Shown here one piece after another: positions 7,650 to 23,505 of a stretch of 59,759 bases of DNA. The stretch is taken from assembly GCA_021734665.1 (NCBI GenBank), contig JAIPIN010000001.1, forward strand, positions 1 to 59,759, read 5' to 3'. The stretch comes from Kiritimatiellales bacterium. Its GTDB lineage: Bacteria; Patescibacteriota; Gracilibacteria; Peribacterales; Peribacteraceae. The notes beneath the pieces were generated by a model, which worked only from the letters and a program-made list of their open reading frames with translations, did no database searches and had not been told where the DNA came from. The first letter of the stretch is position 1; every line of letters starts with the position of its first letter. The position numbers were made by a program, and so were the translations under genes.

Positions 7650-7934
7650 TCAATCTTCTGCGAGTTCTATTTCACAGTCTCCATGGATCTGTGCTTGGCA
7701 TCCTAGGCGATCTGAATCTTCTGTGATTCCCATATTCTCTTCTCTGTCGTTTCTAGGACTTAAGTTTTCTGATCCTTTGTTTACCTTGCAGCGACACGTA
7801 GTGCAGAAACCATTACCTCCGCATGCATGCTCCATTGGTATACCTTCTCTTAAGGCTGCTTCCAACAGACTTTCGCCCTCTTTAGCTTCTACGTCTATTT
7901 TTTTACCGTCATAGGTAAAGGTGATTTTTGGCAT
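7650..7934 (-). CDS. [2Fe-2S] ferredoxin
   Basis: 94 aa; C-x5-C-x2-C ... C ligand pattern (ACGGNGFCTTCRC ... LGCQ); lies divergent to sufC. Confidence 0.85.
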   Translation of the reverse strand: MPKITFTYDGKKIDVEAKEGESLLEAALREGIPMEHACGGNGFCTTCRCKVNKGSENLSPRNDREENMGITEDSDRLGCQAQIHGDCEIELAED

Positions 7935-8029: not shown

Positions 8030-8791
8030 ATGTCTTCTCTCCTATCCATCTCCAATCTCCATATTTCTGTAGATAAGCAGGAGATCATTCATGGGTTGAA
8101 TTTAGAAGTTCCTAACGGGGAAGTGCATGCAATTATGGGTCCTAATGGATCGGGGAAATCTACATTGGTGAATTCTTTGATGGGACATCCGGCTTATAGT
8201 ATTACAAGCGGCGAGGTTCTACTTGATGGCAAAGATATACTGAAAATGGAAACGCATGAGCGTGCGCAGGCTGGATTATTTCTTGCATTCCAATATCCCA
8301 AAACAATAAGTGGAGTAAGCGTGCGCAATTTTCTATTTGCAGCATATACAGCACAGATGGCGTTTAGGTATCCAGACAAAAGGAAGATTTCACCTATTAC
8401 ATTTCAAGCACTTTTGCAGCAGAAAATGGAACTTTTACATTTAGACTTTGCGTTTTCTGATCGCAATGTGAACGAAGGCTTTTCTGGAGGGGAGAAAAAG
8501 AAATTGGAAATATTGCAGATGCTTATCTTGGAACCAATATTTGCATTGTTAGACGAGACTGACTCTGGCTTGGATATAGATGCGTTAAAAATAGTTGCAG
8601 ATGGTGTGAATCTTATGAGGTCAGGAAAATTTTCGTGTCTATTAGTAACACATTATGCACGTATTCTGAATTACGTTACTCCAGATAAAATTCATGTCAT
8701 GAAACAAGGCCAGATTATAGAAAGTGGAGGAGCAGATCTGGCACAGAGGCTAGAAAAAGAAGGTTATGAGCAAATTGTAGCCAAGTCATAG
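8030..8791 (+). CDS. sufC: Fe-S cluster assembly ATPase SufC
   Basis: 253 aa; Walker A GPNGSGKST, signature FSGGEKKK, Walker B LDETDSGLD; overall SufC-like N-terminus (LSISNLHISV). Confidence 0.93.
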   Translation: MSSLLSISNLHISVDKQEIIHGLNLEVPNGEVHAIMGPNGSGKSTLVNSLMGHPAYSITSGEVLLDGKDILKMETHERAQAGLFLAFQYPKTISGVSVRNFLFAAYTAQMAFRYPDKRKISPITFQALLQQKMELLHLDFAFSDRNVNEGFSGGEKKKLEILQMLILEPIFALLDETDSGLDIDALKIVADGVNLMRSGKFSCLLVTHYARILNYVTPDKIHVMKQGQIIESGGADLAQRLEKEGYEQIVAKS

Positions 8792-9877: not shown

Positions 9878-10282
9878 TTAGGAGAATAAATTTCCTATCT
9901 CCTTATGCGCAACTACAAAGATGCTTCCAGCGGTAATTAATACAATTCCAAGAATAATTGACAGATCAATCTTTTCTTTAATAAATATTGAATTGAATAT
10001 TATTGCAGCTATTGGTCCAGATGCTATCCATAGAGATATTATTATTAGAAAATTACGGAATACTTCGTTTCCCCATTGGAATCCCAGTCCATAAAGCACA
10101 TTTATTATAATTGGAACCCAAATGAATTTAATTTGGATCAATAAAATTCCGGTGATAGTAGAGTGATAGGTGATTCCAAGAATTTGACCTTCTGGGCTTA
10201 ATTTGCCCATGAAATATCCGTACCATGTGATAATGAATTGTGCTGTCAGAAATATGCCAAGCACTAAAACCTTTTGAATCAT
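9878..10282 (-). CDS. small 4-TM membrane protein (EamA/DMT-half or SMR-like)
   Basis: 134 aa, four hydrophobic segments, no soluble domain; family assignment is a guess from size and topology. Confidence 0.45.
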   Translation of the reverse strand: MIQKVLVLGIFLTAQFIITWYGYFMGKLSPEGQILGITYHSTITGILLIQIKFIWVPIIINVLYGLGFQWGNEVFRNFLIIISLWIASGPIAAIIFNSIFIKEKIDLSIILGIVLITAGSIFVVAHKEIGNLFS

Positions 10283-10302: not shown

Positions 10303-10785
10303 TTATGTAATTGCCTGATTAATATTCCCTCCCAATTGTTTAACTATGTCGTAAGTTACTTCGTTGGTTGTTTTAGAGCGAATTGCCTTTTTTAAAGTAA
10401 CAGATAACCACCCTGTTGCAAGGAATCCTGAAATCACGAACATAGCTTTCCATTCCGAAGGCCCTAACCATAGTGCTTTTTTAAAATCAGATGTAATCAA
10501 AGCAATTATGATTGTGGTTACTGTAGAAAGTGGCGCAACCCATTCGTGTTTTCCAAGTTTGGCTATATTTCTCTTTAGACAAAGCAGAGTTTTATCGTGT
10601 GTTACTACTATTAACTTTTGATTTGTATTAGTGCTTACCTTAATAACTTTTGTATTTAGATCTTCGGGAGAAGCAGCAGAGGGGATAGTATTTGAAAATT
10701 CTTCATATAAAAACTCCTTCTCTGATGTTGAAGGCTCGGGGATTACGGAATTTAATTTTTTTAATGATTGCAGGACGTTTTGCAT
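10303..10785 (-). CDS. hypothetical protein with two C-terminal TM helices
   Basis: 160-aa ORF with ATG start; polar N-terminal half, then TTIIIALITSDF and MFVISGFLATGWLSVTL hydrophobic segments; no recognisable motif. Confidence 0.5.
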   Translation of the reverse strand: MQNVLQSLKKLNSVIPEPSTSEKEFLYEEFSNTIPSAASPEDLNTKVIKVSTNTNQKLIVVTHDKTLLCLKRNIAKLGKHEWVAPLSTVTTIIIALITSDFKKALWLGPSEWKAMFVISGFLATGWLSVTLKKAIRSKTTNEVTYDIVKQLGGNINQAIT

Positions 10786-10880
10786 AGGAGGCGTATGCTG
10801 CCCTTACAAGAGAGCCATGTCAAATCAATTATTTTTATTGATGTAGTAATTTACTAAATTTACAAATATATTTTATTACG

Positions 10881-10901
10881 AAAAAGACCCCAAGGGGGGC
10901 C
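10881..10901 (-). terminator. rho-independent terminator (minus strand) just after small ORF S1
   Basis: Minus-strand RNA: GGCCCC-CCUU-GGGGUC (one G-U pair) followed by UUUUU; 26 nt downstream of the S1 stop codon. Confidence 0.7.
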
Positions 10902-10927
10902 AGTTTCCGTAGAAATTTTGAGACTAA

Positions 10928-11068
10928 TTATTCAACAGTCTCTTCTTCTGTTGCTTCTTCTTCAGTGGCTTCCTCTTCGGTAGCTTCTTCTGCTTCAGGA
11001 GCGTCTGTTTCTGGTGTTTCTGCTGCATCATTACCGCAAGAGCCACCACAACATCCATCATCAAACAT
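10928..11068 (-). CDS. small ORF S1: 46-aa Cys-containing, extremely acidic peptide (MFDDGCCGGSCGNDAAETPETDAPEAEEATEEEATEEEATEEETVE)
   Basis: Internal ATG of track ORF 10928..11119, preferred because the TTCTTTCCCC box sits 8 nt upstream exactly as for S2; own terminator downstream; (EEAT/EEEAT)x3 tail. Confidence 0.5.
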   Translation of the reverse strand: MFDDGCCGGSCGNDAAETPETDAPEAEEATEEEATEEEATEEETVE

Positions 11069-11076
11069 GTGTGATA

Positions 11077-11086
11077 GGGGAAAGAA
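11077..11086 (-). promoter_or_regulatory. pyrimidine box TTCTTTCCCC, 8 nt upstream of S1 ATG
   Basis: Plus strand ggggaaagaa 11077-11086; identical 10-mer at identical spacing before S2. Confidence 0.5.
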
Positions 11087-11100
11087 TAAATACAAAGGTG

Positions 11101-11129
11101 ATTGTGACCTATTTTTCAAACAACTTCAA
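11101..11129 (-). promoter_or_regulatory. candidate sigma70-like promoter for S1 (TTGAAG-17-CACAAT)
   Basis: Minus strand -35 at 11129-11124, -10 at 11106-11101; weak -10. Confidence 0.3.
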
Positions 11130-11180
11130 GGGCACACTCCCTCTTTTGAGAGATTTTTCAATTGATGAGTATCACATCAA

Positions 11181-11288
11181 TTATTCACTAGATTCGTCAC
11201 TCGTCACGTTGCATGTGCATGCATTTCCGGGGCAGCTGCATCCGTTACATTCCGGACACATTTGTTCTCCGCAGACATCGCATTCCAT
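11181..11288 (-). CDS. small ORF S2 (not in ORF track): 35-aa peptide with 8 Cys (MECDVCGEQMCPECNGCSCPGNACTCNVTSDESSE)
   Basis: ATG 11288-11286 to TAA 11183-11181, translated manually; CxxC-x4-CxxC-x2-CxC-x4-CxC pattern plus acidic tail; in-frame TAG 12 codons upstream fixes the start; promoter-like hexamers and pyrimidine box upstream. Confidence 0.5.
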   Translation of the reverse strand: MECDVCGEQMCPECNGCSCPGNACTCNVTSDESSE

Positions 11289-11296
11289 GAGGCGAG

Positions 11297-11306
11297 GGGG
11301 AAAGAA
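11297..11306 (-). promoter_or_regulatory. pyrimidine box TTCTTTCCCC, 8 nt upstream of S2 ATG
   Basis: Plus strand ggggaaagaa 11297-11306. Confidence 0.5.
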
Positions 11307-11316
11307 GTATATAAAT

Positions 11317-11345
11317 ATTATCTAGCTCTTGGATGGGCAGATCAA
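11317..11345 (-). promoter_or_regulatory. candidate sigma70-like promoter for S2 (TTGATC-17-GATAAT)
   Basis: Minus strand -35 at 11345-11340, 17-nt spacer, -10 at 11322-11317; about 29 nt upstream of the ATG. Confidence 0.45.
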
Positions 11346-11423
11346 TAGCAAAAATGTGTTCGAAATTACATATAAATCCCAACAGCCTTCGCCAAGGCTA
11401 CGGCTGTCAAGAATCCCAAGCAT

Positions 11424-11470
11424 CAAATCACAAAAAATCCCATTCGTGAGTTTTTGATTTTTGTAATTTG
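11424..11470 (-). terminator. A/T-rich hairpin immediately after the permease stop codon (possible operon-end terminator or attenuator)
   Basis: caaatcacaaaaaatc (11424-11439) vs gatttttgtaatttg (11456-11470), 16-nt loop; no clear U-run, so function is uncertain. Confidence 0.35.
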
Positions 11471-11471
11471 C

Positions 11472-12692
11472 CTACTCGTACCCCATTGCTTCGATCGGCT
11501 GAAGAGCTGCTGCTTTGCGTGCTGGATAAATTCCAAATATCAATCCTATTACAATTGATGTAATCAATGGGATTAGAATTGCTTTTATAGATAGTGCGTA
11601 AGTCAGTTCGCCAAGGAATTTACTGGCCACAAGAGATATGAAGTAGCCAAAGCTTATGGCTCCAATTACTCCAATAACACCGCCAATCAACGTAAGTACA
11701 ATTGATTCCATTAAGAATTGTATAAGAATGTCTTGCCTGCGTGCGCCGACAGCTTTGCGCAGTCCAATCTCCTTTGTTCTTTCTGTAACAGATACGAGCA
11801 TGATATTCATGATTCCCACTCCTCCTACGAGCAATGAGATACTTGCAATAAGTCCTAAGAATAGAGTGATACTCATTGTTACTGTTTCGATTATTTCCAT
11901 TGCCTGCTCTAATGAGCGCGCATAAAAGTCATCTTTATCAATATCATCTTCTGGATTGTCTATATTGTGACGTTGCCTGAGCAACGAAACAATATCTTGC
12001 CTAGTTAATTCATTATTGCCATTTATAGATTGTAGCGCGATGTAATCGATATAAGTTGTACGTCCCTTGATAGCTTTTGCTACCGAGAATGGGACATAAA
12101 CCATAGAATCTAGTTCTGCGGTAAGAGGAGAACCCATAGTCTCCAAGATACCTACTACGGTAAATTTACGCGCACCGATTGTTAGTCGTTTTCCAAGTGG
12201 ATTTTCATTTTGAAATAGATCCTCTGCGGCCTGAGATCCTAAAACAACTACGCTCTTGGCTCCTTTATCATCTTCATCGTTTAGTAGTCTTCCTTCTTCG
12301 ACCTTCATAGACCAGTTGGCGAAAATTTCTTTAGTTGTTCCTAAAATCATAGGTGCAATATCTTCTCGTCCATATTTTATTCGGTCTGTTAAAAAGATCG
12401 CAGGCGCTACATTTTTTACAGTAGTTAAGTTCCTTATAGCTTCCAAGTCACCGAATGTAATGCTCAAAACATCTTTACCAATGTCTTGAATGCCCTTTGC
12501 ATGAATTTCAAAAGTATCTCCAGAAAAGCTCTCTACTTGATCTACAATAAATCTTTCAAAACTTGCTCCAATAGATACCATAAGCACTACCGATCCAACT
12601 CCTATCACAATACCAAGTGTAGTGAGCATGGATCGCATGCGAGATCGTTTTAATCCTTCTAGAGCCGCGGAGACGGTGTCTTTTAAGAGCAT
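11472..12692 (-). CDS. ABC transporter permease, MacB/FtsX family (start moved to ATG 12692)
   Basis: N-terminal TM (RSMLTTLGIVIGVGSVVLMVSIG), large extracytoplasmic domain, C-terminal FtsX module with TERTKEIGLRKAVGARRQDI; N-terminus aligns with the paralog (MLLKD.. vs MLLRD..). Confidence 0.85.
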   Translation of the reverse strand: MLLKDTVSAALEGLKRSRMRSMLTTLGIVIGVGSVVLMVSIGASFERFIVDQVESFSGDTFEIHAKGIQDIGKDVLSITFGDLEAIRNLTTVKNVAPAIFLTDRIKYGREDIAPMILGTTKEIFANWSMKVEEGRLLNDEDDKGAKSVVVLGSQAAEDLFQNENPLGKRLTIGARKFTVVGILETMGSPLTAELDSMVYVPFSVAKAIKGRTTYIDYIALQSINGNNELTRQDIVSLLRQRHNIDNPEDDIDKDDFYARSLEQAMEIIETVTMSITLFLGLIASISLLVGGVGIMNIMLVSVTERTKEIGLRKAVGARRQDILIQFLMESIVLTLIGGVIGVIGAISFGYFISLVASKFLGELTYALSIKAILIPLITSIVIGLIFGIYPARKAAALQPIEAMGYE

Positions 12693-17948: not shown

Positions 17949-19328
17949 ATGCCCATTGCATCTATACATGATCAGACTAATCCTGCAGCCTACACAGAAG
18001 GACTGATCAAGGGCGTAACCGAAGAGCTTATTCTAAAAATTTCAGCTGATAAAAAAGAACCCAAGTGGATGAGAGATCATAGACTTAAATCTTTCGAAAT
18101 TTTTAAGAATTTATCTTTGCCAAAGTGGGGTCCAGATATTTCTAGTCTAGATTTAGATGACATTATTTATTACGCGCCGTTAGGTTTGGAAGAGGCAAGT
18201 GATTGGGGAGAGGTTCCGGAAGACATACGAAAGGTTTACTACAGACTTGGAATTCCAGAAGCAGAGTACAAGTGGCTTGCAGGAGTTGGTGCACAGTACG
18301 AAAGTGAAATTGTTTATCACAGTTTAAAAAAACAATGGGCAGAACAAGGTGTAATATTTTTGGATATGGATGATGCAGTTCATGAGCATCCAGAACTAGT
18401 GCAGGAATATTTTATGAAATGCGTTCCAAATTCCGATCATAAATTTGCAGCACTACATGGAGCGGTATGGTCCGGTGGAACCTTCCTATACATTCCAAAA
18501 GGACTAGTGGTCACTGAGCCATTGCAGGCGTATTTCCGCATGAATGCTCCAAATATGGGACAATTTGAGCATACTCTTATAATCATAGAAGAAGGCGCAG
18601 AGGCACATTACATAGAAGGTTGCTCGGCTCCAAAGTACGGCACTCAAGCATTGCATGCAGGGTGTGTAGAGATTTATGCAAAGCCTAGTTCGCGTGTTCG
18701 ATATTCGTCAGTAGAAAACTGGAGCAAGGATACGTACAACTTAAACACTAAGCGTGCAATTGTAGAAAAAGATGCAGTGATGGAATGGGTGGGAGGCAAC
18801 ATGGGTTCGGGAGTAACAATGCTATACCCATGTTCCATGTTAGTTGGCGAAGGTGCCAAGGCTGATCATCTTGGTTTGGCATTTGCAAATGAAGAGCAAT
18901 GGCAAGATACCGGTTCCAAAGTAATGCATTTAGCACCACACACATCCAGCTCCATTGTTTCTAAGTCTGTTAGTAAAAGTGGAGGAGTGTCCGTTTATCG
19001 TGGAACAGTGTACATCGCACCCAATGCATATGATTGCACGGTGGGTGTGGAGTGCGATGCGTTGTTACTGGATGAGACCAGCCGTACCGATACGATTCCT
19101 GATATCAAAGTAAGAAACAATGATGTAACTATTGCGCATGAAGCCCGAGTTGGGCGCTTAAGCGAAGAGGATTTGTTTTACCTACAGTCGCGTGGAATAG
19201 CAGAAGAAGAGGCAAAATCCATGATTGTGAATGGCTTTATAGAGCCAATCGTTCGCCTGCTTCCTTTGGAATATGCAGTTGAGATGAACAGGCTGATTGA
19301 GCTGGAGATGGAGGGGTCGGTGGGTTAA
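17949..19328 (+). CDS. sufB: Fe-S cluster assembly scaffold SufB
   Basis: 459 aa; conserved SufB core and C-terminal HEARVGRLSEEDLFYLQSRGI...AKSMIVNGF. Confidence 0.93.
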   Translation: MPIASIHDQTNPAAYTEGLIKGVTEELILKISADKKEPKWMRDHRLKSFEIFKNLSLPKWGPDISSLDLDDIIYYAPLGLEEASDWGEVPEDIRKVYYRLGIPEAEYKWLAGVGAQYESEIVYHSLKKQWAEQGVIFLDMDDAVHEHPELVQEYFMKCVPNSDHKFAALHGAVWSGGTFLYIPKGLVVTEPLQAYFRMNAPNMGQFEHTLIIIEEGAEAHYIEGCSAPKYGTQALHAGCVEIYAKPSSRVRYSSVENWSKDTYNLNTKRAIVEKDAVMEWVGGNMGSGVTMLYPCSMLVGEGAKADHLGLAFANEEQWQDTGSKVMHLAPHTSSSIVSKSVSKSGGVSVYRGTVYIAPNAYDCTVGVECDALLLDETSRTDTIPDIKVRNNDVTIAHEARVGRLSEEDLFYLQSRGIAEEEAKSMIVNGFIEPIVRLLPLEYAVEMNRLIELEMEGSVG

Positions 19329-19791: not shown

Positions 19792-20097
19792 TTAGCGGTA
19801 TTGCAGACCTTCTAGCGTTGATCGTGCATCTATGATGGCACTTTCTAGTTCTGTTGCTGCATTTGCTGGATCTTCTGTGGCGGTTCTTAAAATATGTTCA
19901 ACGTCACCTTTAAGCTTGCGACCTTTATCTAGAGCCTCTGGACTATCTGATAGTGTTACCAATCGGCTGATAAGTGTTCTTGCTTCGCCTTCAAGGCTTT
20001 GCAAATCAGGTTCGGCAACTTCTGTTCCAGCTTCTGTTTGAGCGAAAGCTTCATGGGCTACATCAAATGGGTCTAATGAGGTTTCGAAATCATCCAT
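19792..20097 (-). CDS. hypothetical small acidic helical protein (101 aa)
   Basis: ORF with ATG start; CTTTTCCCC box (plus-strand 20106-20114) 8 nt upstream, as for S1/S2. Confidence 0.45.
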   Translation of the reverse strand: MDDFETSLDPFDVAHEAFAQTEAGTEVAEPDLQSLEGEARTLISRLVTLSDSPEALDKGRKLKGDVEHILRTATEDPANAATELESAIIDARSTLEGLQYR

Positions 20098-20105
20098 GAA
20101 TATAA

Positions 20106-20114
20106 GGGGAAAAG
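20106..20114 (-). promoter_or_regulatory. pyrimidine box (A)CTTTTCCCC, 8 nt upstream of ATG 20097
   Basis: Plus strand ggggaaaag; upstream context ATACTT..TTCCCC resembles the S2 leader. Confidence 0.4.
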
Positions 20115-20761: not shown

Positions 20762-21499
20762 ATGATCTATTTGGCTACAGATACAGGCATTAAACAAGAA
20801 ATCACAATTCCACGCGGTTTGCAGGAAGATGCTCCAACAGAGATTGTTGTATCAGAAGATGCGCATATTGTTTTGAATGCAGAAGAAGAGTCTTGCAGTG
20901 AATATATAATCAATGTTCAAGATGCTCATTTGAATTTAGAAGTGATTTTGGATAAAGGAGCTAGGCTCACTGTAAATTTATCAGTTAACTCTGGAGTTAT
21001 CATTCAACGCGGACGAGTGGGAGAGAATGCAAAACTAAATTGGGTAAATAAAACTTTTGGTAGCGATGTTAAGCAAGAGTTGGCTTCGGAAGTTGTAGGA
21101 GTCAACGGAGAGAGTTCAGTTCATTGGATTTTTAGAGCAGGCAATAAAGATCATTTGCAGTTATCTGCACATAATATTTTTCAGGGTCAGCAGGGCAGAG
21201 GAGAGATCGTGATGAAGGGGGTCGTGGAGGATCAGGCTCAGGTGAGTTGTAATGGAATGATAGAAGTGGGGGTAGGGGGTAGGGGGTCGGATGCATTCTT
21301 GAAGGAAGACATTTTGATGCTAGATAAAACTGCAAAGATAGATGCAGTTCCGGGATTAGAAATCAAAACGAATGATGTAAAAGTGAGTCACTCAGCTAGC
21401 GTGAGGCATGTAAGCCCGGAAGAAATTTTCTACTTTGCATCGCGGGGGGTGGAGGAGAGTGAGGCTAGAAGGATGTATGTGGAGGGATTTCTTGGATGA
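20762..21499 (+). CDS. sufD: short SufD-like Fe-S assembly protein (SufB/SufD family, C-terminal beta-helix only)
   Basis: 245 aa; C-terminal VSHSASVRHVSPEEIFYFASRGVEESEARRMYVEGFL matches the SufB/D family tail (compare sufB ...RLSEEDLFYLQSRGI...). Confidence 0.75.
   Translation: MIYLATDTGIKQEITIPRGLQEDAPTEIVVSEDAHIVLNAEEESCSEYIINVQDAHLNLEVILDKGARLTVNLSVNSGVIIQRGRVGENAKLNWVNKTFGSDVKQELASEVVGVNGESSVHWIFRAGNKDHLQLSAHNIFQGQQGRGEIVMKGVVEDQAQVSCNGMIEVGVGGRGSDAFLKEDILMLDKTAKIDAVPGLEIKTNDVKVSHSASVRHVSPEEIFYFASRGVEESEARRMYVEGFLG
21268..21288. repeat. G-rich tandem heptads gggggta gggggta gggggtc inside sufD-like CDS
   Basis: Read directly; encodes GVGGRGS; another GGGGG run lies ~40 nt upstream. 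Confidence 0.85.
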
Positions 21500-21669: not shown

Positions 21670-21982
21670 CTACCGGGCACCAAGTACGCAAACGCACTTA
21701 GAGATGCTCTCCCGGGCAATCAAATAACATGTTGATCTATGAGCACGATCAGCGCATGTCTTCAGAGATAATTCCCTGGTAAGGAAGTGTTCCATCCGCA
21801 GGTTCTCCTACGGATACCTTGTTACGACTTAGTCCCAATCAGCAGTTTCACCGTGGTACCGCCTCCGAAGAGTAACGGTCCTTCGGGCGCCCCTGCCTTT
21901 CATGACTTGACGGGCGGTGAGTACAAGACCCAGGAACATATTCAACGTGACGTAGCTGATTCACGTTTACTAGCGATTCCAA

Positions 21983-22021
<39 letters not shown>

Positions 22022-22381
22022 ACCGGCTTTTTGGGATTCGCTCCCCCTCGCGGGTTCGCTGCCCTCTGTACCGGCCATTGTAGCACGGGTGTTGCCCCAG
22101 GTATAAGGGACACGCAGATCTGACGTCATCCTCACCTTCCTCCGCCTTGGAGGCGGCAGTCTCCTATGAAAAAACAACATAGGATGAGGGTTGCGCTCGT
22201 TTGCTGACTTAACAGTACACCTCAAGGCACGAGCTGACGACGACCGTGCACCACCTGTCACCGAGTTCCTTGCGGCACTCCTCCCTTTCGGGTGGATTCT
22301 CGGGATGTCAAACCTGGGTGAGGTTCTCCGCTTATTATCGAATTAAACCCCATGCTCCACCGCTTGTGTGGGTCCCCGTCT

Positions 22382-22413
<32 letters not shown>

Positions 22414-22497
22414 TCCCAGGCGGTGTGCTTACCGCGTTAGCTAAGGCACGGAAATCAATTGATAATTCCCACACCGAGCACACATCGTTTAGGGCGT

Positions 22498-22531
<34 letters not shown>

Positions 22532-22916
22532 ACGCTTTCGTCCCTGAGCGTCAGTACATTCCCAGCATCTTGCCTTCGCTTTTGGCGTTCTACTATGGAT
22601 CAACGGATATTACCCCTACACATAGCATTCCAGATGCCTCTGAATGACTCAATCTCTGCAGTTTCCGGCACGTACACGGAGTTGAGCTTCGTGCTTTTAC
22701 GCCAGACACACAGAGTCGCCTACGGACGCTTTACGCCCAGTAATTCCGAGTAACGCTTGCACCTTCCGTCTTACCGCGGCTGCTGGCACGGAATTAGCCG
22801 GTGCTTTCTCCTGAGGTACCGTCAAAAATTTCGTCCCTCAGAACAGAAGTTTACGCCCCAAGGGGTGTCATCCTTCACGCGGTGTCGCTCCGTCAGGCTT
22901 TCGCCCATTGCGGAAT

Positions 22917-22948
<32 letters not shown>

Positions 22949-23183
22949 GCCGTGTCTCAGTCCCATTCTGGCTGGTCGTCCTCTCAGACCAGCTACCCGT
23001 CATAGTCTTGGTAGGCTATTACCCCACCAACAAACTGATAGGCCGCAGGCCCCTCCCGAACCGATAAATCTTTCCTCTTGCGAGGGCATCCGGTATTAGC
23101 CCATCTTTCGATGGGTTATCCCTGAGTTCGGGGTAGGTTCCAACGTGTTACTCAGCCGTTCGCCACTCGCGTCTCACTCTTGG

Positions 23184-23340
23184 TTCTAGTGTAGTTAGTG
23201 CTGTAATTCTAGTTCATGGGGGCGAGTGAATGAAAAATGAATAATGAATAATGAAAAATTATCATTACTTTCCATTTTTCATTTTTAATTATTCATTCGC
23301 GCCCTGCGAACGAGAAAGACAGTCTAATACTGCGTAAAAA
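23184..23340 (-). other. ~157-nt insertion/expansion segment in 16S helix 6 (V1)
   Basis: Closed by a 16-bp stem (23168-23183 cgcgtctcactcttgg vs 23341-23356 ccaacagtgagacgcg, 1 mismatch) between the conserved CATGCAAGTCG and GGCGAACGG..GAGTAA blocks; about 190 nt where E. coli has about 40. Confidence 0.7.
23222..23302. repeat. heptad-periodic imperfect inverted repeat H5 inside the 16S insertion
   Basis: gcgagtgaatgaaaaatgaataatgaataatgaaaaat vs ttccatttttcatttttaattattcattcgcgc (AATGAAW units); pairing register ambiguous. Confidence 0.7.
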
Positions 23341-23505
23341 CCAACAGTGAGACGCGCGTGCGACTTGCATGTGTTAGGCGCACCGCTAGCGTTCACTCTG
23401 AGCCAGGATCAAACTCTTTAAAAAGAGTTGACCTAACTTAAGTAAAAGTTAGTTCAGTCCTTTTTTACTAAAAAGAACAAAAAAAAAGAAATCGAGGTTC
23501 AATGA

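Follow-up and report, generated by a model that had tools for sequence, protein, structure and literature searches.

Two overlooked mini-genes

Do two very short reading frames, lying in tandem on the reverse strand behind a MacAB-like exporter operon, represent genuine genes, and what could their acidic, cysteine-containing products do? The frames, S2 and S1, were picked out by a sequence-only reading of the window, the whole stretch of 59.8 kb analyzed here, and the coordinates and translations given for them at that stage proved correct. S2 and S1 are two real, conserved mini-genes, overlooked by annotation, of an uncultured Peregrinibacteria-like CPR host. Both exact sequences are absent from a collection of 15 billion proteins, indicating that they were probably never called as genes. 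The features of the locus are reported in Table 1.

Table 1. Features of the S2-S1 locus, in window positions; promoters and terminator are predictions.
Feature	Positions	Strand	Description
S2 promoter	11317..11345	-	-35 TTGATC (11345-11340), 17-nt spacer, -10 GATAAT (11322-11317); consensus scan
S2 leader pyrimidine box	11297..11306	-	TTCTTTCCCC, 8 nt 5' of the ATG
S2 coding sequence	11181..11288	-	35 aa + stop, MECDVCGEQMCPECNGCSCPGNACTCNVTSDESSE
Two small hairpins 3' of the S2 stop	11138..11182	-	RNA fold
S1 promoter	11101..11129	-	-35 TTGAAG (11129-11124), 17-nt spacer, -10 CACAAT (11106-11101)
S1 leader pyrimidine box	11077..11086	-	TTCTTTCCCC, 8 nt 5' of the ATG
S1 coding sequence	10928..11068	-	46 aa + stop, MFDDGCCGGSCGNDAAETPETDAPEAEEATEEEATEEEATEEETVE
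S1 intrinsic terminator	10878..10910	-	ACGGAAAC-TGGCCCC-CCTT-GGGGTC-TTTTTCGT

The S2 peptide (3.6 kDa, net charge about -7.6) is laid out as a 24-residue module with eight Cys, followed by an acidic tail. Cys account for 23% of its 35 residues, and for 33% within the core; all of them belong to CxxC or CxC motifs, arranged as C-x2-C-x4-C-x2-C-x2-C-x-C-x4-C-x-C, and no K, R or H and no aromatic residue (F, W, Y) is present. S1 (4.8 kDa, net charge about -19.5) contains 19 D/E, no K, R or H, one Phe and three Cys (C6, C7, C11), corresponding to 3 of 46 residues, or 6.5%. Both peptides had been described as Cys-rich: the term fits S2, while S1 can only be called Cys-containing. Neither a signal peptide nor a hydrophobic stretch can be read from either sequence.

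The two genes had been proposed to be independently signalled, and each of them is indeed predicted to have its own promoter. The one upstream of S2, already noticed at first sight, was located by the consensus scan; its layout, TTG(C/A)(A/T)C-17/18-GA(C/T)AAT, is also found 5' of S2 in three related loci (L001, L003, L015), and the corresponding element in L007 is TTGCAT-17-AAAAAT. The putative S1 promoter, overlooked in the sequence-only reading, was also missed by the scan, because it scores just 8 out of 12 against the consensus; it is nevertheless conserved, with identical 17-nt spacing in L001, L003, L005 and L015, and as TTGCA(T/C), a 17-18-nt spacer and a -10 (T)AA(C/A)AAT in L021 and L022.

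Downstream of the S2 stop, the first predicted hairpin (AATTGATG...CATCAATT, 11182-11160) is followed by a second one (TCTCTC-AAAA-GAGGGA, 11153-11138), kept as CCTCTT-AAAA-GAGG in L001, L003 and L015. Both lack a T-run, so that read-through of the S2 transcript into S1 is possible. For S1, a terminator had been indicated at 10881-10901: a core hairpin (10901-10886) with its T-run was found by the scan, and the full structure extends somewhat further on both sides (10910-10878). Hairpin and T-run are preserved in 6 of the 7 S1 loci; no double-sided compensatory changes are seen across the loci, although the hairpin is retained. Taken together, the recurrence in related contigs of the ORFs, the boxes, the promoters and the exact 220-nt spacing between the boxes goes beyond chance.

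Conservation of the reading frames

The search for homologues, suggested along with the original observation, gave 10 distinct S2 sequences, on Peregrinibacteria/Patescibacteria contigs, and 7 S1 loci. The 8-Cys pattern and the acidic tail are kept in all ten S2 homologues: all eight Cys, D4 and G16 are invariant, the tail drifts in sequence while retaining its charge, and the C-terminal residue may be E, K, M, I, V or D. An exhaustive HMMER search with S2, covering 1.84 billion representatives, led to one true cluster (P0026); P0025, a repetitive 333-aa protein, was discarded as a spurious match. At least two loci came from a pattern scan of metagenomes. Word-indexed searches are unsuited to S2, the peptide being too short, and returned no match for S1. 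The S2 family is seen only in Peregrinibacteria/Patescibacteria contigs; a scan of viral contigs revealed no relative, hence no sign of a phage origin.

S2 is a genuine protein-coding gene: its homologues keep the eight Cys, and the changes between close relatives are concentrated at third codon positions. Differences at first, second and third positions amount to 2, 0 and 11, 0, 1 and 8, and 1, 1 and 10 for pairs of close relatives, where pN is 0.03-0.05 and pS 0.6-0.8 (NG86), the pS of close relatives in general being 0.5-0.8. The same holds for the class-B homologues L007 and L024 (pN 0.07, pS 0.49 across all 51 codons). These values point to a strong purifying selection on S2. Lack of conservation of the frame had been set beforehand as the outcome that would overturn the finding: the S2 frame is conserved, pN is well below pS, and the finding stands. 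MAG annotation routinely misses small proteins; S2 is still among the most constrained sequences of its neighbourhood.

The region could also be read without any functional S1 or S2 protein: the frames would be uORFs or leader peptides for the genes of the 160-aa and 134-aa membrane proteins, or sRNAs, or else the true gene would run antisense, as ORF 11014-11325. Most loci do have S1 placed immediately 5' of the 160-aa gene, with a terminator at its end. The antisense ORF, for its part, reaches a length of 103 aa and, sharing the wobble positions of S2, also looks conserved among close relatives. A comparison of the six frames, however, favoured the sense one, which features the lowest pN/pS (0.27), the highest amino acid identity (0.63) and 10 invariant columns, against 0.41, 0.53 and 2 for the best antisense frame. 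The antisense counterparts of the invariant Cys alternate between His and Gln. Interrupted in L015 and L020 and of varying length elsewhere, the antisense ORF was rejected as a gene, its frame being unconserved. A regulatory leader peptide or attenuator is hardly compatible with selection acting on S2 at the amino acid level, with the TTGACA -35 element that the 160-aa gene has of its own after the S1 terminator, or with the unrelated genes that follow S2 homologues. As for an RNA, the folds of the two mRNAs show unremarkable stability (z = -1.6 and -0.7) and no family was found by Rfam: at the gathering score only the 16S rRNA gene was reported in the window, and at E <= 1 two chance matches in 10600-11600. 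All these non-protein readings appear highly improbable.

S1 is less constrained. Its frame recurs in 7 loci, along with promoter and terminator, and is held through many in-frame (3n) indels, the homologues ranging from 35 to 57 aa. Retained features are a MF(F)D[DE] start, two or three Cys, as a pair or triplet, and an acidic tail of Ala, Pro, Thr and Glu; the tail evolves fast under weak constraint (pN/pS ~0.3-0.5). S1 is possibly a decayed paralogue of S2. That it is a functional analogue of S2 is only a guess, because its 2-3 Cys are variably spaced and its tail is weakly constrained.

Genomic context

The mini-genes directly follow the four-gene exporter operon (HlyD, ABC and two MacB_PCD/FtsX proteins), on its downstream side, both in the window and in some ten related loci. 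A functional tie to this operon had been suggested, together with the idea of exported or modified peptides. In such a reading S2 and S1 would be follower-type RiPP precursors, leaderless bacteriocins or a peptide metallophore, with the HlyD/ABC/MacB-MacB system as their exporter. The position just behind the operon fits this idea, as does the order of a Cys-rich N-terminal part and an acidic tail, which recalls follower-peptide precursors. The co-occurrence with HlyD/MacB turned out to be incomplete, however. MacB is missing from the surroundings of the S2 homologues in L007, L024 and L017, which occupy two other, unrelated gene contexts; in L001 and L015 inserted genes separate MacB from S2, and despite such flanking insertions the S2-S1 pair stays joined, at a constant box spacing. 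The association with the exporter reflects shared ancestry of the gene order only, and separate promoters would leave the peptides outside the exporter operon.

No peptide-modifying enzyme (radical-SAM, YcaO, lanthipeptide or other maturase) was found, either across the annotated 0.6-34.7 kb or at the syntenic loci, and a C39 peptidase domain is lacking from the transporter. S2 and S1 share with SCIFF/ranthipeptide and other Cys-rich RiPP precursors the short, Cys-dense, ribosomal nature and the tendency to escape annotation; those precursors, in contrast, have an N-terminal leader and an adjoining maturase, whereas here the Cys part itself is N-terminal. The double-glycine leader typical of class II bacteriocin and RiPP export is missing, and net charges of about -8 and -20 are unlike those of known leaderless bacteriocins. 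Export or modification of these strongly anionic, leaderless peptides is consequently considered very unlikely.

Genes of the SUF machinery also flank the region: sufC (8030-8791), a 2Fe-2S ferredoxin (7650-7934), sufB (17949-19328) and a sufD-like gene (20762-21499). Small Fe-S cluster-binding peptides, such as a mini-ferredoxin or a cluster carrier tied to this machinery, might thus be imagined, all the more so as the C-x2-C-x2-C-x-C-P of S2 comes near the 4Fe-4S ferredoxin motif C-x2-C-x2-C-x3-C-P, and the 160-aa gene adjoins sufB in L027. The Cys spacing nonetheless deviates from the motif, and no Fer4-type Pfam match was obtained. A distance of 2-9 kb, with unrelated operons, separates S1/S2 from the suf genes, which lie on either strand; the class-B loci L007 and L024 have no suf neighbours, and L027 itself contains neither S1 nor S2. 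A role in Fe-S cluster metabolism looks quite unlikely.

The remaining neighbours are little informative. Family scans of a 195-aa His-rich membrane protein, of the 142-aa, 110-aa and 160-aa proteins and of the inserted acidic proteins gave nothing of use; the exceptions were the 134-aa protein, with a weak EamA match, and a 23S-rRNA-IVS protein recognized in L015. The AF2 model of the 160-aa protein (pLDDT 58) is too poor for a structure search. Proteins neighbouring the class-B S2 homologues match no family, and the genes that follow these homologues, when compared to those for the 160-aa and 134-aa proteins of the window, proved unrelated.

Predicted function of the peptides

When scanned against Pfam and NCBIfam, the two peptides returned nothing at E <= 10, and a profile search of PDB sequences found no metallothionein, the best match being a conotoxin (E = 0.2). 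With frames conserved and no counterpart in these three collections, S2 and S1 define new small-protein families, as had been surmised. For S2, no match to metallothionein, zinc finger or ferredoxin emerged at the level of either sequence or fold.

The reading that we favour, with a probability of about one half, is that S2 and S1 are cytoplasmic metal-thiolate mini-proteins, metallothionein-like or of the zinc-knuckle type, with polyanionic tails; both the cytoplasmic location and the binding of metals are what we infer from the peptides. S2 would most likely fold only around metal ions, bound either in a metal-thiolate cluster of the minimal-metallothionein type or in two interleaved Zn(Cys)4 sites, and would either buffer or carry metal, or act as a metal-stabilized knob presenting the polyanionic tail. 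In S1, the short N-terminal Cys pair or triplet would be joined to a long, disordered, fast-evolving polyacidic tail.

A metallothionein-like nature is in agreement with the composition and the Cys spacing of S2. Both peptides are below the limit of about 10 kDa of metallothioneins; S2 falls within their usual Cys content (~15-30%, in CxC, CxxC or CC motifs, with few aromatics), S1 outside it. S2 fits none of the described metallothionein families. The fungal copper metallothionein has about 25 aa with 7 Cys, and motifs such as CCGGxCGC and GCxCPGGxxCxC occur in plant type-2 and Ec metallothioneins; the CCGGSCG of S1 presumably resembles the N-terminus of plant MT2, and is taken as a lead only.

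Like the minimal metallothioneins and SmtA/BmtA (PMC10612145), S2 is very small, consists of Cys for about a quarter to a third, and is encoded by a standalone gene. It also shares with them the CxC and CxxC motifs, the lack of aromatics and the presence of Gly, Pro, Asn and Ser between the Cys. On the other hand, S2 lacks His as well as an SmtA-type zinc-finger segment, and a strongly acidic C-terminal tail is found in both S1 and S2. Bacterial metallothionein loci differ as well: neither an SmtB/ArsR- nor a Zur-type regulator lies near S1/S2, no metal transporter adjoins them, and the annotation of 0.6-34.7 kb includes no metal-sensing regulator or metal-resistance gene (ArsR/SmtB, Zur, MerR, P-type ATPase). 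The literature on Cys-rich small proteins or metallothioneins in Peregrinibacteria/Patescibacteria yielded nothing relevant.

The tail, rather than the metal, might be the working part. S2 and S1 would then be metal-stabilized adaptor or regulator mini-proteins, the Cys binding only structural zinc, and the tail mimicking nucleic acid or docking on a basic partner, as in YacG, a gyrase inhibitor, or serving as a substrate carrier, as in LysW. Every homologue has a Cys knot with a polyacidic tail behind it, the tail being free in sequence and kept in charge, and the same layout of a short N-terminal Cys-ligated knot and a flexible acidic tail, within less than 60 aa, is found in two kinds of small zinc-finger proteins, the amino-group carrier LysW/ArgW and YacG. 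The N-terminal half of S2, CDVCGEQMCPEC, weakly recalls the ZZ-finger pattern of sequestosome-1 (E = 1.5), and LysW (5k2m_F) was the only match found by Foldseek in the PDB with the AF2 model of S2 (pLDDT 70.5, built without metals). Yet this match (E = 8.6, probability 0.02) is not usable and, like the ZZ one, is statistically meaningless. LysW depends on a conserved C-terminal Glu motif and on the ATP-grasp partner gene LysX: the variable C-terminus of S2 offers no such motif, and no LysX-like gene is present in the annotated neighbourhood. Eight Cys in 24 residues, moreover, are denser than a structural zinc ribbon requires, and LysW/ArgW and YacG have four. The adaptor role is regarded as a doubtful, secondary possibility.

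If S2 binds metals, as in the favoured metal-thiolate reading, it would provide CPR/Peregrinibacteria with a metal- or redox-buffering component missing from current metabolic reconstructions, and the metallothionein/zinc-knuckle repertoire with a very short natural scaffold (24 residues, 8 Cys). The interest of the S2/S1 small-protein family is modest rather than revolutionary.

The pyrimidine box as a start-site signal

The occurrence of an identical box 8 nt before each ATG was borne out: TTCTTTCCCC is found exactly twice in the window, at 11306-11297 and 11086-11077. A private co-regulation signal is not supported. The box also lies ahead of a third gene of the window (19792-20097) and, among relatives, of several genes, and keeps its distance from the start codon, not from the promoter: among orthologues the gap to the ATG is fixed at 8-9 nt, and that from the -10 element ranges from 10 to 16 nt. 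When the regions upstream of 181 long genes were inspected, 13 of 17 occurrences of TCCCC/TTCCC were located 5-14 nt from the ATG. The box is best described, on these positional grounds, as an instance of a lineage-wide, start-codon-proximal UUCCCC pyrimidine motif, not specific to the peptides and estimated to mark about 10% of the lineage's genes. The idea that the box pairs with GAA-rich codons of the tails was also considered, and rejected for want of statistical support.

In the window, SD-like tetramers are found upstream of just 0-2 of 54 genes, and the anti-SD core of the 16S rRNA reads CUUCC, i.e. a mutated anti-SD. The S1 and S2 mRNAs, with a G-poor, C/U-rich leader and UUCCCC 8 nt before the AUG, would carry the lineage's own start-site signal, and the box would thus act in translation. 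Both the scarcity of SD-like sites and the altered 16S core are shared with other non-SD systems, such as the SD-poor Bacteroidetes and CPR lineages without anti-SD (PMC9297842); here, in addition, a positive pyrimidine signal takes the position of the SD. The reported loss of the anti-SD motif concerns a subgroup of the Parcubacteria rather than Peregrinibacteria (PMC9297842).

A bolder proposal combines the two findings: S2 and S1 would be the first gene-encoded, CPR-specific thiolate-cluster peptides, acting as a metal or thiol buffer in cells whose biosynthetic capacity is very limited, and UUCCCC would be a genuine ribosome-binding signal, alternative to the SD, the lineage having abandoned the CCUCC anti-SD. 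UUCCCC could, for example, pair with the GGGAA stretch just 3' of the canonical 16S end (…CACUUCCUUA|CCAGGGAAU), if the 3' end of the 16S rRNA reached into CCAGGGAA. In its entirety this is judged unlikely. The positional motif, in a lineage lacking SD sites, is in any case relevant to start-site choice and gene calling in CPR. Among the 54 gene leaders of the window, that of S2 ranks first for both pyrimidine and C content.

Two small protein families and their relatives

The sequence-only reading had proposed two minus-strand genes for Cys-rich, acidic peptides, S2 (35 aa) and S1 (46 aa). Both open reading frames are present in the position and strand indicated, with the translations MECDVCGEQMCPECNGCSCPGNACTCNVTSDESSE for S2 and MFDDGCCGGSCGNDAAETPETDAPEAEEATEEEATEEEATEEETVE for S1. 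S2 contains 8 Cys and 7 Asp/Glu and lacks His as well as basic and aromatic residues; its core is about one-third Cys, arranged in CxxC and CxC motifs. S1 is acidic as described (19 Asp/Glu, no basic residues), but its N-terminus is not Cys-rich: 3 Cys are found, not four or more. Neither peptide has a membrane segment or, as already noticed from the sequence, a signal sequence, from which a cytoplasmic location is inferred for both.

Related contigs and loci (L001-L027) were retrieved through homologues of the 160-aa protein encoded downstream of S1, and more through S2 itself. Ten distinct versions of S2 were found: those from L001, L003 and L015 share 89-94% identity with the window S2, against 43 to 59% for L014, L020, L007 (protein-collection entry P0026), entry P0027, L017 and L026, the L026 figure not being alignment-based. 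The eight Cys, D4 and G16 are kept in all ten, as is an acidic tail after the Cys core, variable in length and sequence. S1 homologues are found in seven loci (window, L001, L003, L005, L015, L021, L022): they start with MF(F)D[DE], contain 2-3 Cys at variable spacing and end in an acidic tail, rich in Ala/Pro/Thr/Glu. Lys/Arg are nearly absent (zero in 5 out of 7), and lengths vary between 35 and 57 aa, every difference being in-frame. Four loci contain both S2 and S1, five distinct loci S2 only (L014, L020, L026, L017, and L007 counted together with its relative L024) and three S1 only; two loci featuring the 160-aa gene (L023, L027) contain neither.

No Pfam or NCBIfam family matches S2 or S1 at E <= 10. 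With reading frames conserved in relatives, S2 and S1 constitute two new small-protein families restricted to this lineage, one of the possibilities originally raised; the finding is real and of moderate interest. Among PDB sequences, a conotoxin (E = 0.2) and a ZZ finger (E = 1.5) score best; Foldseek, given the AF2 model of S2 (pLDDT 70.5), matches only LysW (E = 8.6). Neither exact sequence is present in a 15-billion-protein collection, where relatives are few and none named; no viral relatives of the peptides were found. One entry, P0030 (751 aa, from a 3.8-kb ENA contig), shares a 90%-identity cluster with the 51-aa S2 homologue P0026, and probably results from an error of gene calling or from a fusion.

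All relatives of S2 and of the 160-aa protein come from Patescibacteria/Peregrinibacteria MAGs and metagenomes, and the NCBI bin label, Kiritimatiellales (locus tags K9M03_), therefore looks wrong.

Features in the window and, where a locus is named, in related loci
Feature	Position	Strand	Remarks
S2	11288-11181	-	35 aa
S1	11068-10928	-	46 aa
Antisense ORF	11014-11325	+	103 aa, opposite S2
S2 promoter	11345-11317	-	TTGATC-17-GATAAT; found by scan
S1 promoter	11129-11101	-	TTGAAG-17-CACAAT; from aligned flanks, absent from sequence-only reading
S1 terminator	10910-10878	-	33-nt symmetric, GC-rich hairpin and T-run
160-aa protein gene	10303-10785	-	
134-aa protein gene	9878-10282	-	
2Fe-2S ferredoxin gene	7650-7934		
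sufC	8030-8791		
sufB	17949-19328		
sufD-like gene	20762-21499		short
Genes inserted around S2-S1	L001 5305-5886	-	
	L015 6707-7270	-	
	L015 5440-5835	+	
195-aa membrane protein gene	L007 7243-7830	-	divergent from S2 homologue
101-aa acidic protein gene	19792-20097	-	
UUCCCC-type motif	20095-20112	-	ahead of 101-aa protein gene
UUCCCC-type motif, relatives	L003 8229-8248; L015 9975-9991; L007 11205-11224; L024 8279-8298; others		
16S rRNA gene	21780-23424	-	1645 nt
16S rRNA 3' end	21780-21800	-	…GGAUGGAACACUUCCUUA

Selection on the coding frame

In the 24-codon core of S2, differences between the window and close relatives concentrate at third codon positions ([2,0,11], [0,1,8] and [1,1,10] by codon position), with pN 0.03-0.04 and pS 0.6-0.8. 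The antisense ORF also looks conserved among close relatives, because it shares wobble positions with S2; for this reason all six frames were compared in eight sequences. The S2 sense frame features a pN/pS of 0.27 (pS saturated), an amino-acid identity of 0.63 and 10 invariant columns; the wobble-sharing antisense frame follows, with 0.41, 0.53 and 2, respectively. The remaining four frames exceed a pN/pS of 1.2, with identities of 0.30-0.38; among them, invariant columns were counted in the two antisense frames, and are 0 in both. Since, in addition, the antisense ORF is broken or shorter in L015 and L020, it was rejected, and the coding frame is that of S2, which is very probably a genuine gene.

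Constraint on S1 is weaker (pN/pS about 0.3-0.5, alignments uncertain), the pattern expected of a disordered low-complexity tail. Its status as a gene, judged likely, rests on the conservation of its frame, start and composition and of the signals on either side.

Promoters and terminator

The promoter proposed for S2 is present and conserved in the aligned flanks of relatives, as TTG(C/A)(A/T)C, 17-18 nt, GA(C/T)AAT. For the S1 promoter, the 17-nt spacing is retained in the four closest loci, and L021 and L022 feature TTGCA(T/C) and (T)AA(C/A)AAT. The terminator noticed 3' of S1 is likewise found, extending to a longer hairpin, and is retained in 6 out of 7 loci; no double-sided covariation is seen among the S1 loci compared. 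Only two small hairpins follow S2, neither with a T-run, so partial read-through into S1 is possible. Past the S1 terminator, the 160-aa gene is preceded by a -35 element of its own, TTGACA, which rules out S1 as attenuator leader of that gene. A non-coding or regulatory nature of these ORFs is scarcely credible.

Genomic neighbourhood

As described, the peptide genes lie between MacAB-like exporter genes and two small membrane protein genes, all on the same strand: upstream are PGA_cap, an HlyD-type adaptor, an ABC ATPase and two MacB_PCD/FtsX permeases; downstream are the 160-aa and 134-aa proteins, neither with a significant family match. The former, with a soluble N-terminal half and two predicted helices of membrane-spanning appearance, belongs to a family found only in Patescibacteria MAGs and metagenome contigs (28 invariant positions, no known domain); the latter resembles 4-helix membrane proteins of EamA/SMR type, and weakly matches EamA.

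A tie between the peptides and the exporter finds no support. L001 and L015 have additional genes on both sides of the pair, separating MacB from S2 and S1 from the 160-aa gene, yet S2 and S1 remain together. In L007 and L024, S2 has a His-rich membrane protein of 195 aa, divergently encoded, on one side and two soluble proteins, both unrelated, on the other. Within about 0.6 kb of S2, L017 features neither MacB nor the 160-aa gene, and S2 is followed there by a convergent SIMPL gene. The MacB neighbourhood is gene order inherited within one clade. Export or modification of the peptides, suggested by their position beside the exporter genes, is very improbable: no RiPP maturase or C39-peptidase transporter is annotated at 0.6-34.7 kb of the window, in line with the absence of modifying enzymes originally noted. 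The same stretch has no annotated metal regulator.

Among the genes inserted near S2-S1 in some relatives, one encodes a protein of 187-193 aa that has a hydrophobic N-terminal segment and a C-terminal run of DDW/EDDW repeats, and another a 23S-rRNA-intervening-sequence protein. The 195-aa protein has no family match; it contains many His clusters (HHH, HVHHY) and could be metal-related.

Possible function

Metallothioneins are the proteins that S2 comes nearest to in composition: CxxC/CxC motifs and the lack of aromatic, His or basic residues suggest a minimal metallothionein, although by sequence it belongs to none of the described families. Unable to form a hydrophobic core, S2 must either fold around metal or stay disordered. 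The favoured reading, with a probability of about 0.5 as a whole, is a metal-thiolate mini-protein that is cytoplasmic, has a polyanionic tail and would act as metal buffer or carrier. The four Cys pairs of S2 could equally well give rise to two Zn(Cys)4 sites, interleaved with each other. A zinc-stabilised adaptor, with the acidic tail as active part, is an unlikely alternative. An Fe-S peptide tied to the suf genes, which are scattered around the locus and not in one operon, is quite improbable. S1 shares leader, overall layout and locus position with S2, and, depending on the locus, accompanies S2 or stands in its place, which may point to a role analogous to or derived from that of S2.

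A probable start-site signal common to the lineage

The identical pyrimidine box described ahead of both genes, TTCTTTCCCC, has exactly two copies in the window, 8 nt before each ATG; in syntenic loci it is found only ahead of S2 and S1, with a box-to-box distance always of 220 nt. Its distance from the ATG is fixed (8-9 nt) while that from the -10 element varies (10 nt in S2, 16 nt in S1), so it behaves like a translation-level, RBS-like element, not an operator. Of 54 leaders, that of S2 is the richest both in pyrimidines and in C; that of S1 ranks third in pyrimidines and joint second in C.

The box is not private to S2/S1. TTTCCCC-N6-10-ATG matches 3 times in the window, where 0.62 matches are expected; besides S2 and S1, the 101-aa acidic protein gene is preceded by it. 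Over 13 loci, a YYCCC-type motif is found at -22 to -5 in 19 out of 177 long genes, including every SIMPL/DUF541 orthologue, against 2 out of 177 in a control interval. Ahead of 181 long genes, TCCCC/TTCCC occurs 17 times within 80 nt, and 13 of these occurrences end 5-14 nt before the ATG; GGAG and AGGA are depleted there.

The window 16S rRNA ends in …GGATGGAACACTTCCTTA, its anti-SD core reading CUUCC in place of CCUCC, and SD-like tetramers precede just 0-2 of the 54 genes. Anti-SD motif loss in CPR is reported for a subgroup within Parcubacteria (PMC9297842); no published report was found for this lineage. The box common to S2 and S1 reflects a lineage-wide start-site signal: the UUCCCC-type motif occupies the SD position and may be a lineage-specific ribosome-binding signal, possibly a more unusual result than the peptides. 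Binding by protein bS1, or pairing with GGGAA beyond the canonical 16S end, is speculation.

The sequence immediately 3' of that end is CCAGGGAAU; it contains GGGAA, the complement of the UUCCC motif. The 16S gene exceeds a 1533-position model by an insertion of about 110 nt; such insertions are common in CPR. About 10% of genes in these contigs feature the UUCCCC-type motif 5-14 nt before the ATG, among them SIMPL/DUF541 orthologues, a 136-aa gene and the 101-aa protein gene. The 101-aa protein has no Cys and no family match; its gene has a promoter and leader laid out like those of S2 (TTGCTT, 16-17-nt spacer, TATATT-like -10, …tacTTTTCCCC-N8-ATG).
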